The notes beneath the pieces were generated by a model. The model made no database searches. It was not told where the DNA came from and saw only the letters and a list, made by a program, of their open reading frames with translations. Shown one piece after another: positions 16,048 through 17,024 of a stretch of DNA of 36,434 nt. Position numbers and translations under genes: made by a program. Position 1 is the stretch's first letter, and each line of letters begins with the position of its first letter. Origin of the DNA: a virus; IMG/VR virus record IMGVR_UViG_3300009149_000122. One strand, written 5' to 3'.

Positions 16048-16309
16048 CGACTCAAACGTGCTAGAGCTTGCCGACATTGATCCCGATGCCCTAATTGCCG
16101 ACGGGCTTGATACTGCGCTTATCGGTTGGACCGATAGCTGGACGGGTAACGGACGTGCTGTTAGGGCTGTATACAGTATCAAAAAGGTACTTGAAATTTT
16201 CGTAGAACAAGGCATGGATGAGGAGGAGGCTCAGGAGTACTTTGAGTTTAACGTGGCAGGAGCTTACGTTGGTCCGCATACTCCGGTATTTGTGTATAAT
16301 TTTGATTAG
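16040..16309 (+). CDS. hypothetical acidic protein
   Basis: ORF only. Confidence 0.3.
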   Translation: MCSDSNVLELADIDPDALIADGLDTALIGWTDSWTGNGRAVRAVYSIKKVLEIFVEQGMDEEEAQEYFEFNVAGAYVGPHTPVFVYNFD

Positions 16310-16333
16310 CTGGCATGGTGGAATGGTAGACGT
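16309..16333 (+). pseudogene. 5' fragment of a Leu-type tRNA (acceptor GCTGGCA + D-arm GTG-GAATGGTAGA), truncated before anticodon arm
   Basis: near-identical to 5' end of tRNA-Leu(TAG) at 13456; runs into HNH start codon. Confidence 0.5.
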
Positions 16334-16897
16334 ATGCGTAGCATCTTAAAAGATGTAAAGAAAGTGCATGGTCCTTACGAGCGTAAGGATGGTCGTAGCC
16401 ATGTTGTGCTTGTTTATCTAAACGGGAAGAAACGCACAGTTTCTTATCCGAAGTTTCTGGTGGAGTTCGTAGTGGGAAGGGCGCTTGACCCTCATAAAGA
16501 AACCATAGATCATATCGACGACGATTTTACAAATAATAGGTGGAGTAACCTTCGAATTATTCCGAGGGGCAAGCATACTAGCGAAGACCGTGTTACCGTT
16601 GTTGAGGTGCTCACTAAGTGCGTTTGGTGTAGTAGTTTGGCAAAGAAACGACCTAACCAACTTAACCATAATGCTAAATTGGGGAAGGCTGGACCGTTTT
16701 GCACACGTAGTTGTGCCGCAAAGTATAGTAGGGAAGTACAGCTAGAGCGCAAGGAACCGTTTTCTGCGCAGCCATTTGTACCTACAGAGGAACGTTTATA
16801 TAAGAAACGAACCAAGGATGGTGGTATTTGTGTAGCTTCTTTGGTGGGTGATGGTATTTCCGAGAATGATATACTACAATATTGTAGTAAGAAATAA
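16334..16897 (+). CDS. HNH homing-type endonuclease with C-terminal zinc finger
   Basis: ETIDHIDDDFTNNRWSNLRIIPRGKH HNH motif; CVWC...CTRSC; lies between the tRNA halves. Confidence 0.7.
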   Translation: MRSILKDVKKVHGPYERKDGRSHVVLVYLNGKKRTVSYPKFLVEFVVGRALDPHKETIDHIDDDFTNNRWSNLRIIPRGKHTSEDRVTVVEVLTKCVWCSSLAKKRPNQLNHNAKLGKAGPFCTRSCAAKYSREVQLERKEPFSAQPFVPTEERLYKKRTKDGGICVASLVGDGISENDILQYCSKK

Positions 16898-16972
16898 GCT
16901 CCCTTAGCCCAATTGGCACGAGGCCTCCGACTTAAAATCGGATTGTTCCCGGTTCGAGTCCGGGAGGGAGCA
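16898..16972 (+). tRNA. class-I-shaped tRNA with anticodon TAA (Leu UUA-reading)
   Basis: acceptor GCTCCCT/AGGGAGC, anticodon stem TCCGA/TCGGA loop CTTAAAA, 5-nt variable, T-arm CCCGG-TTCGAGT-CCGGG, A73. Confidence 0.65.
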
Positions 16973-16981
16973 TAAAATCTC

Positions 16982-17024
16982 GTGGGGCTTAGTCCCCGTG
17001 CGGGTTCGACTCCCGCTGTCAGTA
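16982..17024 (+). pseudogene. 3' fragment of a Leu-type tRNA (variable arm GGGG-CTTAGT-CCCC, T-arm GCGGG-TTCGACT-CCCGC, acceptor TGTCAGT-A)
   Basis: near-identical to 3' part of tRNA-Leu(GAG); its acceptor strand pairs 7/7 (two GU) with 5' fragment at 16309. Confidence 0.5.

Follow-up and report, generated by a model that had tools for sequence, protein, structure and literature searches.

We examined a 36,434-nucleotide (nt) stretch of viral DNA, the IMG/VR virus record IMGVR_UViG_3300009149_000122 (hereafter, the window), in which a tRNA-Leu(UAA) gene with a long variable arm (type II) is split at 16309–17024 by the gene of an HNH endonuclease and a second, complete tRNA gene. All coordinates refer to the whole window, and L-numbers denote loci of its relatives. 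The HNH gene was probably inserted at its own target site, accompanied by a replacement tRNA rather than by a self-splicing intron. The locus is composed of four parts, as follows.

16309–16333, plus strand: 5′ remnant of the type II tRNA-Leu(UAA) gene (match to a profile of Leu 5′ halves, nhmmer).
16334–16897, plus strand: HNH_3-family endonuclease gene, 187 amino acids (aa) (Pfam, PHROG).
16898–16972, plus strand: complete inner tRNA with the anticodon UAA and a short variable loop (ARAGORN, Rfam).
16973–17024, plus strand: 3′ remnant of the type II tRNA-Leu(UAA) gene (BLAST and alignment to the tRNA of the relative L247, and reconstruction).

The 5′ remnant reads GCTGGCA TG GTG GAATGGTAGA C over 16309–16331, which corresponds to the 5′ strand of the acceptor stem (16309–16315), U8-G9, the 5′ strand of the D stem (GTG), the D loop (GAATGGTAGA) and the C at 16331. 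It abuts the ATG at 16334 through the GT of 16332–16333, which is either a degenerate 3′ strand of the D stem or a junction. The 25-nt remnant constitutes the entire spacer and 5′ leader of the HNH gene, and its first base, G16309 (G1), doubles as the final base of the stop codon of the upstream 89-aa open reading frame (ORF). Directly after the discriminator of the inner tRNA, the 3′ remnant reads TAAAATCTCG T GGGGCTTAGTCCCC GTG CGGG-TTCGACT-CCCG C TGTCAGT A. Its TAAAATCTCG portion, identical to that of L247, comprises U34-A35-A36, A37-A38 and the 3′ strand of the anticodon stem. Thus located are the anticodon UAA (16973–16975), the 3′ strand of the anticodon stem, TCTCG (16978–16982), the variable arm (16984–16997), the T arm GCGGG-TTCGACT-CCCGC (17000–17016), the 3′ strand of the acceptor stem, TGTCAGT (17017–17023), and the discriminator A (17024). 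The outer acceptor strands GCTGGCA and TGTCAGT pair at 7/7 positions, including two G-U pairs. The outer gene is broken between U33 and U34, in the anticodon loop, and an insert of 641 nt (16332–16972) replaces about 10 nt of it (tRNA positions 24–33), namely the 5′ strand of the anticodon stem and C32-U33.

An initial annotation, made from the window's sequence, had named the 5′ piece, the HNH gene, the inner tRNA, the 3′ piece and the 7/7 acceptor pairing; all of these are present, except that the comparison with L247 moves the start of the 3′ piece from 16982 to 16973, the wobble base U34. The annotation had also stated that neither fragment contains an anticodon arm. This is correct for the 5′ piece and incorrect for the 3′ piece, which retains the anticodon and the 3′ strand of its stem.

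The identical layout was found in three independent assemblies (ENA, Logan and JGI), with one single-nucleotide polymorphism (16792) across 16000–17300 and three further differing bases at the cut end of the JGI contig. An assembly chimera is ruled out by this agreement. A remnant of an integrase attachment site, in which the 3′ part of a tRNA gene is kept from the anticodon loop onward, was likewise rejected: the matching 5′ part is present, and there is no integrase nearby.

The ancestral state of the locus is seen in L247, L248 and L249, which were reached via homologues of the neighboring 89-aa protein. These loci share with the window the NADAR gene, the 88-aa gene (its product is 66% identical to the window's 89-aa protein) and a gene with a major vault protein (MVP) shoulder domain on the minus strand, and they have no HNH gene. 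In its place, an intact 86-nt type II tRNA-Leu(UAA) gene occurs at the same locus, and its ends match the two fragments in the window. The L247 tRNA reads GCTGGCA TG GTG AAATAGGTATA CAC A CGAGA CTTAAAA TCTCG C GGGGCTTTGTCCC TAT CCGGG TTCGACT CCCGG TGCCAGC A. The 5′ piece of the window is identical to nt 1–24 of this tRNA at 21/23 positions, and the 3′ piece to nt 35–84 at 43/50 positions. A BLAST comparison of the L247 tRNA with the window returned 16973–17015 at 88% identity (E 3.7e-8) and 16309–16320 as an exact match. When 16332–16972 is exchanged for the 10 nt of L247 (ACACGAGACT), ARAGORN calls an 85-nt tRNA-Leu(UAA). Since the L247 tRNA matches both ends and the reconstruction folds, the resemblance of the fragments to a tRNA is not a matter of chance: they are the two ends of one ancestral tRNA-Leu(UAA) gene with a long variable arm, which is still intact in L247. 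The intact tRNA-Leu that the initial annotation had predicted for relatives devoid of the HNH gene thus exists in a syntenic position, and its view that a Leu-type tRNA was disrupted by the insertion of an HNH gene and a tRNA(UAA) is borne out by the L247 allele, with the addition that about 10 nt were lost.

Five states were distinguished at the orthologous locus among the relatives.

L247: the long-arm tRNA alone.
L257/258/259 and L260: a short-arm tRNA(UAA) of 72–74 nt alone, right after the 88–91-aa gene or its 83-aa neighbor.
L088: HNH gene (product 59% identical) and short-arm tRNA(UAA), no remnants; the downstream gene is as in L260.
The window and L086/L087: HNH gene (68% identical in L086) and short-arm tRNA inside the split long-arm tRNA.
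L092: inner tRNA and 5′ remnant with an HNH gene (66% identical); the 74 nt to the contig end show no 3′ remnant.

The HNH gene is therefore polymorphic for presence and absence at a conserved locus, a hallmark of mobility, as is seen between L247 (no HNH gene, intact tRNA) and the window, and between L260 (short tRNA) and L088 (HNH gene and short tRNA), with shared flanking genes. In L086, the 5′ piece is GCCCGCATGGTGGAGCTGGTAGACACA, with the ATG directly after it, and the 3′ piece is TAAAATCCCTC...TGCGGGTA. In L088, the HNH ORF extends 11 codons into the following tRNA and stops at the anticodon TAA. The MVP-shoulder gene, which adjoins the split-tRNA locus in all relatives, encodes in the window an 855-aa protein (18561–21128, minus strand) with the domain PF11978 and a faint match to Vault_3; such a protein is unusual for a phage.

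The product of the HNH gene is presumed to be a homing endonuclease. It matches Pfam HNH_3 with 28.6 bits (the cut-off is 24.8) and PHROG 14913, 'HNH endonuclease', with an E-value of 5.7e-18, and its C-terminal part is Cys-rich and zf-FCS-like (zf-FCS, E 0.0017). In an alignment of 28 homologues, the residues D59, H60, N72 and H81 of the catalytic beta-beta-alpha-metal motif are invariant. A sequence search of solved structures gave a weak match to I-HmuI (1u3e, E 0.43) and otherwise matches to zinc fingers.

We then examined the surroundings of the HNH homologues, of which 133 were found at E ≤ 1e-5. The 157 fetched homologue loci, together with the earlier ones and the window, gave 135 distinct loci, which were annotated with ARAGORN and with the profiles of Leu tRNA halves. 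Three arrangements beside tRNA-Leu genes were found. One is that the HNH ORF lies within a group I intron at 34/35 of tRNA-Leu(UAA), with complete exons and core motifs (about 17–22 of the 135 loci). Rfam Intron_gpI scores above the gathering threshold in L207 and L221, and with E-values of 2e-7 to 8e-5 in L208, L209, L242, L220 and L204; in L209, the structure is ...CAGGA CTT / TGTTTAG...ORF...GTGTAGAGACT...TAGTCCAGACC...GGTATG / AAAATCCTG.... ARAGORN calls none of the tRNA genes with HNH-bearing introns at this site (L207, L209, L216, L221, L224, L231 and about 15 more IMG/VR and metagenome loci). Another is a free-standing arrangement: in 16 loci, a complete tRNA-Leu, in most cases of type II with the anticodon UAA, begins 0–70 nt after the HNH gene, and in 9 loci the HNH gene follows a tRNA-Leu(UAA). 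The last is the nested arrangement, which was found again in L130 (=L177), L206, L213/L215 and L226, each time with outer halves that pair 7/7 around a complete inner tRNA-Leu.

These nested cases are independent of one another. In L130 (113–1217), a Leu-type 5′ half, a 295-aa ORF with the HNH N-terminal domain, a short tRNA(UAG) at 1094–1167 and a 3′ half follow one another; the outer anticodon-stem strand is gone, and the variable arm of the 3′ half, TGGGAGAAATCCCGTG, is that of the window's own Leu(UAG) tRNA, which makes this locus a parallel for another anticodon. The order is reversed in L213 (2335–2940; also in L215), where the 5′ half is followed by a complete short tRNA-Leu(UAA), the HNH gene and the 3′ half. 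L226 (2331–3000) has the order 5′ half, type II tRNA-Leu(UAA), HNH gene and 3′ half, and the stop codon TAA of its HNH gene is the first (anticodon) triplet of the 3′ half TAAAATCCCTC. In L206, the inner tRNA is type II and the outer T stem has decayed. Finally, L195, L197 and L237 retain the 5′ half alone. When 133 HNH proteins are ordered by neighbor joining (NJ), nested, intron-borne and free-standing forms are intermixed, and the window's clade stands beside free-standing and nested ones. The insertion of an HNH gene and a complete tRNA-Leu into a tRNA-Leu gene is a recurrent event, with nested cases in five or more other lineages, and the anticodon loop of tRNA-Leu is, as judged from this distribution, the home site of the HNH family.

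A Megablast search of GenBank phages with 15300–18300 was negative. In IMG/VR, nothing of the window's clade came back when the HNH protein, the 424-aa protein downstream or the exact DNA of the 3′ fragment served as the query, and distant homologues of the 89-aa neighbor had no tRNA nearby. A scan of genome contigs gave six distant HNH matches and no clue to the host.

The inner tRNA is 75 nt long, with the anticodon UAA, a 5-nt variable loop (type I) and the discriminator A; CCA is not encoded. ARAGORN calls it, and it matches the Rfam tRNA model with 56.8 bits. Its first base comes right after the stop codon of the HNH gene, and the same holds for L086 and L092. In an alignment of eight related short tRNAs, compensatory double changes were found at 18 of the 21 cloverleaf pairs, in all four stems. 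The short tRNAs are, on this pattern, clearly functional genes. In addition, the inner tRNA has U8-A14, A73 and a D arm that combines a large loop with a Leu-like stem of 3 bp, and charging of type I tRNALeu by a bacterial leucyl-tRNA synthetase has been documented (PMC6614811). It may be a replacement that is charged with leucine and reads UUA and UUG, in which case the insertion would cost the phage little. UUA accounts for 10% of the Leu codons in the window's ORFs, the genome having a G+C content of 51%. The tRNAs of the window cover all five Leu anticodons (GAG at 4660, CAG at 4748, UAG at 13456, CAA at 13898 and UAA at 16898), and two of them are short-arm. The phage probably keeps its Leu(UAA) function through the tRNA of the insert, although the original gene is dead. 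Because the inner tRNA starts on the next base, its processing by RNase P would end the HNH mRNA at the stop codon, which could keep the expression of the HNH gene low.

The second short-arm tRNA, which has the Leu anticodon CAG (4748–4823), lies 3 nt after the type II tRNA-Leu(GAG) of 4660–4744, and no HNH gene of the family at 16334–16897 was found near it.

The simplest history of the locus is that the long-arm allele of a genome like L247 received a copy of an HNH gene with an adjacent short tRNA, a pair that is free-standing in genomes like L088. The HNH enzyme would recognize and cut the tRNA-Leu(UAA) DNA near 33/34, in the anticodon loop. Since both recipient halves survive, the joints would have been made by end-joining or by very short homology, and would then have been trimmed to the functional borders. 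The short tRNA may differ from the target enough to escape cutting. The two remnants are most likely relics, which may still serve as short homology arms. The element would in this manner exchange 'splice yourself out' for 'bring a spare part', and we infer that it is still mobile. A more far-reaching proposal is that the HNH gene and a cleavage-immune tRNA form an active, ribozyme-free mobile cassette homing into the anticodon loops of tRNA-Leu in diverse phages, with the damage offset by gene replacement and with the halves acting as portable homology arms. The last point would explain why the halves stay tRNA-like; the proposal as a whole is offered tentatively, as one that may well turn out otherwise.

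Several observations weigh against this account of an insertion with a replacement tRNA. One is the preservation of the remnants. Between the window and L086, the four-fold degenerate sites of the HNH genes have reached saturation (17/54 identical), and the flanking proteins are 63–71% identical; despite the saturation, the outer remnants are still 84–93% identical to the intact L247 tRNA. Moreover, the stems of the window and L086 stay paired by compensatory differences, at 3–70 and 4–69 in the acceptor stem (GCTGGCA/TGTCAGT in the window and GCCCGCA/TGCGGGT in L086) and at 49–65 in the T stem (G-C and C-G, respectively). A neutral relic of one ancient insertion should have decayed. Another is that the edges of the insert coincide exactly with the start codon of the HNH gene and the last base of the inner tRNA, and such tidy edges imply later trimming, beyond a raw illegitimate insertion. 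The last is that many members of the HNH family adjoin normal long-arm tRNA-Leu genes, which means that a short arm is not required for immunity to cutting.

To account for the preservation, the insertions must have been recent or independent, or the remnants must have undergone gene conversion from paralogous Leu tRNAs or been under selection. Separate or repeated insertion into tRNA genes that had already diverged would fit the junctions, which vary slightly (25, 26 or 33 on the left and 34 or 36 on the right). As regards gene conversion, the variable arm in the window is identical to that of its own Leu(GAG) tRNA at 32/34 positions, and the 5′ half to its own Leu(UAG) tRNA at 22/23 positions. 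If selection is responsible, the outer halves may be kept because their RNA pairs across some 700 nt and forms a clamp resembling a tRNA (acceptor stem, T arm, variable arm and D arm). This clamp might define or protect the ends of the HNH mRNA, attract RNase P, RNase Z or the CCA-adding enzyme, or control the expression of the HNH gene. The compensatory differences in the acceptor and T stems, set against the saturated synonymous sites of the HNH gene, agree with such a clamp, and the very compact junctions, with zero spare bases, do so too. The 717-nt window unit, in both its minimum-free-energy (MFE) and its centroid fold, and the 714-nt L086 unit, in its MFE fold, are closed via the outer acceptor stem, although predicted folds of 700-nt RNAs are weak evidence. 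However, L088 has the same HNH gene and short tRNA without outer halves, L092 has no 3′ half in the 74 nt to its contig end, and the outer parts are eroded in L206 and L130. In the window itself, the 3′ strand of the D stem is degenerate (CAC to CGT). The covariation can also be explained by the separate insertions or the gene conversion mentioned above. We regard an RNA-level role of the halves as unlikely, and insertion with a replacement tRNA as the better account of the locus.

An alternative origin is suggested by the position of the break, which lies at the classic intron site of tRNA-Leu(UAA) (33/34, as compared with 34/35 for the introns): an HNH-bearing group I intron at 34/35 may have lost its ribozyme in place, and the short tRNA may have taken its position. 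About 20 loci do have homologous HNH genes within group I introns at that position, such introns have been reported in Bacteroidota (PMC13011429), and in these introns, too, the ORF begins a short way past the 5′ exon. Furthermore, the window's 3′ boundary is at most 1 nt from the 3′ splice site of the introns, and the intron-borne and other HNH forms interleave in the NJ ordering. Against this origin, Rfam Intron_gpI gave no match in 15800–17600 at E ≤ 10, and no Rfam family other than tRNA scores there, whereas the same model does match the HNH-bearing tRNA-Leu introns in L207, L221, L208, L209, L242, L220 and L204. No trace of the group I core motifs GTGTAGAGACT and AGTCCAGACC was found at the locus. 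The base before AAAATC is T (the exon U34) in the window, L086 and L226, and not the terminal G of an intron. The nearest HNH relatives (L088, L093, L135 and L094) are free-standing, and the presence of the HNH gene and short tRNA as a free-standing pair in L088, and of the short tRNA alone in L257 and L260, favors the insertion of a ready-made pair. Decay of an intron in place is thus quite improbable. The element has neither the core nor the exon continuity of group I introns and is not a member of that family; a cousin of those introns that has no ribozyme is the best description of it.

The initial annotation had argued against a spliceable intron, and the lack of an Intron_gpI match in 15800–17600 and the absence of about 10 nt of the tRNA agree with this. 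With anticodon-loop introns of up to 1000 nt allowed and thresholds lowered, ARAGORN gave spurious calls alone and no intron-containing tRNA. The missing 5′ strand of the anticodon stem was found nowhere within the insert. Candidates for lost parts were rejected: CGAGA (16862–16866) and a CGAGG of the HNH gene are what chance would produce and are out of register with L086, and CTTAAAA at 16345–16351 is a coding coincidence (Ile-Leu-Lys), which is absent from L086, L092 and L088. Because there is no group I ribozyme and positions 24–33 are gone, the outer tRNA gene is dead, and splicing cannot restore it. It is hardly credible that cis- or trans-splicing, or the joining of two half-molecules, still produces the outer tRNA, as for archaeal split and intron-containing tRNAs: the halves pair 7/7 and the 3′ half begins at the anticodon, but neither side has the 5′ strand of the anticodon stem or C32-U33, which makes a bulge-helix-bulge impossible, the intron mode of ARAGORN finds no such tRNA, no ribozyme was detected, and a second tRNA with the same anticodon is supplied.

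Some other features of the window were noticed. At 9000–9800 on the plus strand lies a series of tRNA-like pieces missed by ARAGORN. There, T-arm and acceptor 3′ strands occur at 9228–9251, 9445–9468 and 9620–9646, each followed 4–8 nt later by a complementary acceptor 5′ strand and a D arm (at 9257, 9476 and 9651). An element of about 85 nt recurs, and the unit spacing is about 190–300 nt. Joining the pieces in a permuted order yields a tRNA-Trp(CCA)-like call, and deletion of about 125–130 nt (from 9296 to about 9425) yields a tRNA with the anticodon UUA, which would read the UAA stop codon; 9257–9321 has a weak Rfam tRNA match of 32 bits. These pieces could be permuted, interrupted or decayed tRNA genes. 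The nearby tRNA at 8926–8997 scores 58.6 bits with Rfam and has an anticodon loop of abnormal length, for which ARAGORN gives the two-base anticodon '(tg)'. As for promoters, a near-consensus sigma-70-type sequence, TTGACA-17-TATACT, follows the short-arm tRNA(CAG) at about 4829–4858. It is also found in L092 at about 330–360, with the 5′ tRNA remnant and the HNH gene lying about 75 nt downstream of it. A weaker one, TTGACA-17-ATAAGA, lies just upstream of tRNA-Leu(GAG), at about 4610–4640. The promoter scan found none directly upstream of 16309.

The findings bear on annotation in three respects. Phage tRNA genes can be replaced at one locus by structurally different alleles, with a short or a long variable arm. 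Phage genes called as short-arm 'tRNA-Leu' are genuine and conserved, not artefacts. Broken genes of the present type, like HNH-bearing tRNA introns, are missed by tRNA finders. Some host defense nucleases cut the variable loops of tRNAs (PMC13096335), and it is pure speculation that a short-arm Leu tRNA might also aid the evasion of defense.

Split and permuted tRNA genes (in Nanoarchaeum and Cyanidioschyzon, respectively) and archaeal introns with bulge-helix-bulge motifs encode every nucleotide of the tRNA, and the pieces are rejoined. The outer gene of the window resembles the split and permuted genes in its two pieces with pairing acceptor strands and differs from them in lacking 10 nt and any joining signal. 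As to the inner tRNA, the tRNALeu(CAA) of Streptomyces coelicolor is a bacterial tRNALeu of type I, whose variable loop is short (PMC6614811). The two have in common a Leu anticodon on a short-loop body, a 3-bp D stem, a large D loop and A73; the inner tRNA is, however, encoded by a phage, has the anticodon UAA and a leucine identity that is predicted, and alternates with a type II allele among related phages.

With respect to endonucleases among phage tRNA genes, the HNH enzymes of the T5 tRNA region are a case in point. T4 SegB is a free-standing homing endonuclease in a phage tRNA cluster (PMC2330249, PMC13096335). The window shares with it an endonuclease gene among tRNA genes, a spread that would carry neighboring tRNAs along, and presence/absence polymorphism between related phages. 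SegB belongs to the GIY-YIG type and lies between intact tRNA genes, whereas the HNH gene of the window sits inside a tRNA gene, destroys it and carries a substitute. Collaborative or trans homing, in which a free-standing endonuclease is combined with a protective intron, is known for F-CphI/psbA and mobE/I-TevIII (PMC2790892, PMC6083498). By analogy, an endonuclease in the window would move as a unit with a second element, owing to which the donor allele is both functional and uncuttable, but the protective partner would be a replacement tRNA gene and not a self-splicing intron.

Our literature searches found no description of a broken target gene with a co-travelling, complete substitute tRNA; this combination, repeated within one endonuclease family, is what is new here. 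Homing endonucleases are thought to persist in self-splicing introns and inteins or between genes. If the active cassette is real, it would be a third strategy beside introns or inteins and intergenic parking.

The closest known systems are the HNH genes in the group I introns of tRNA-Leu(UAA), inserted at 34/35 and reported in Bacteroidota (PMC13011429). The likeness to the introns in L207, L209, L221 and others extends to a homologous HNH protein (36–49% identical), the same host gene, nearly the same site and an ORF that begins just after the 5′ exon, and by this homology the window element is taken to be related to them by descent. Unlike them, the window has no ribozyme or splicing, 10 nt of the exon are missing, the junction is 33/34 and not 34/35, and a complete second tRNA occupies the place where the ribozyme core would be. 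One HNH family with one target, tRNA-Leu, occurs in intron-borne forms, in free-standing forms beside the target, and in forms that break the target and bring a spare copy, and this range makes the evolutionary path between the lifestyles of endonucleases directly comparable and testable.

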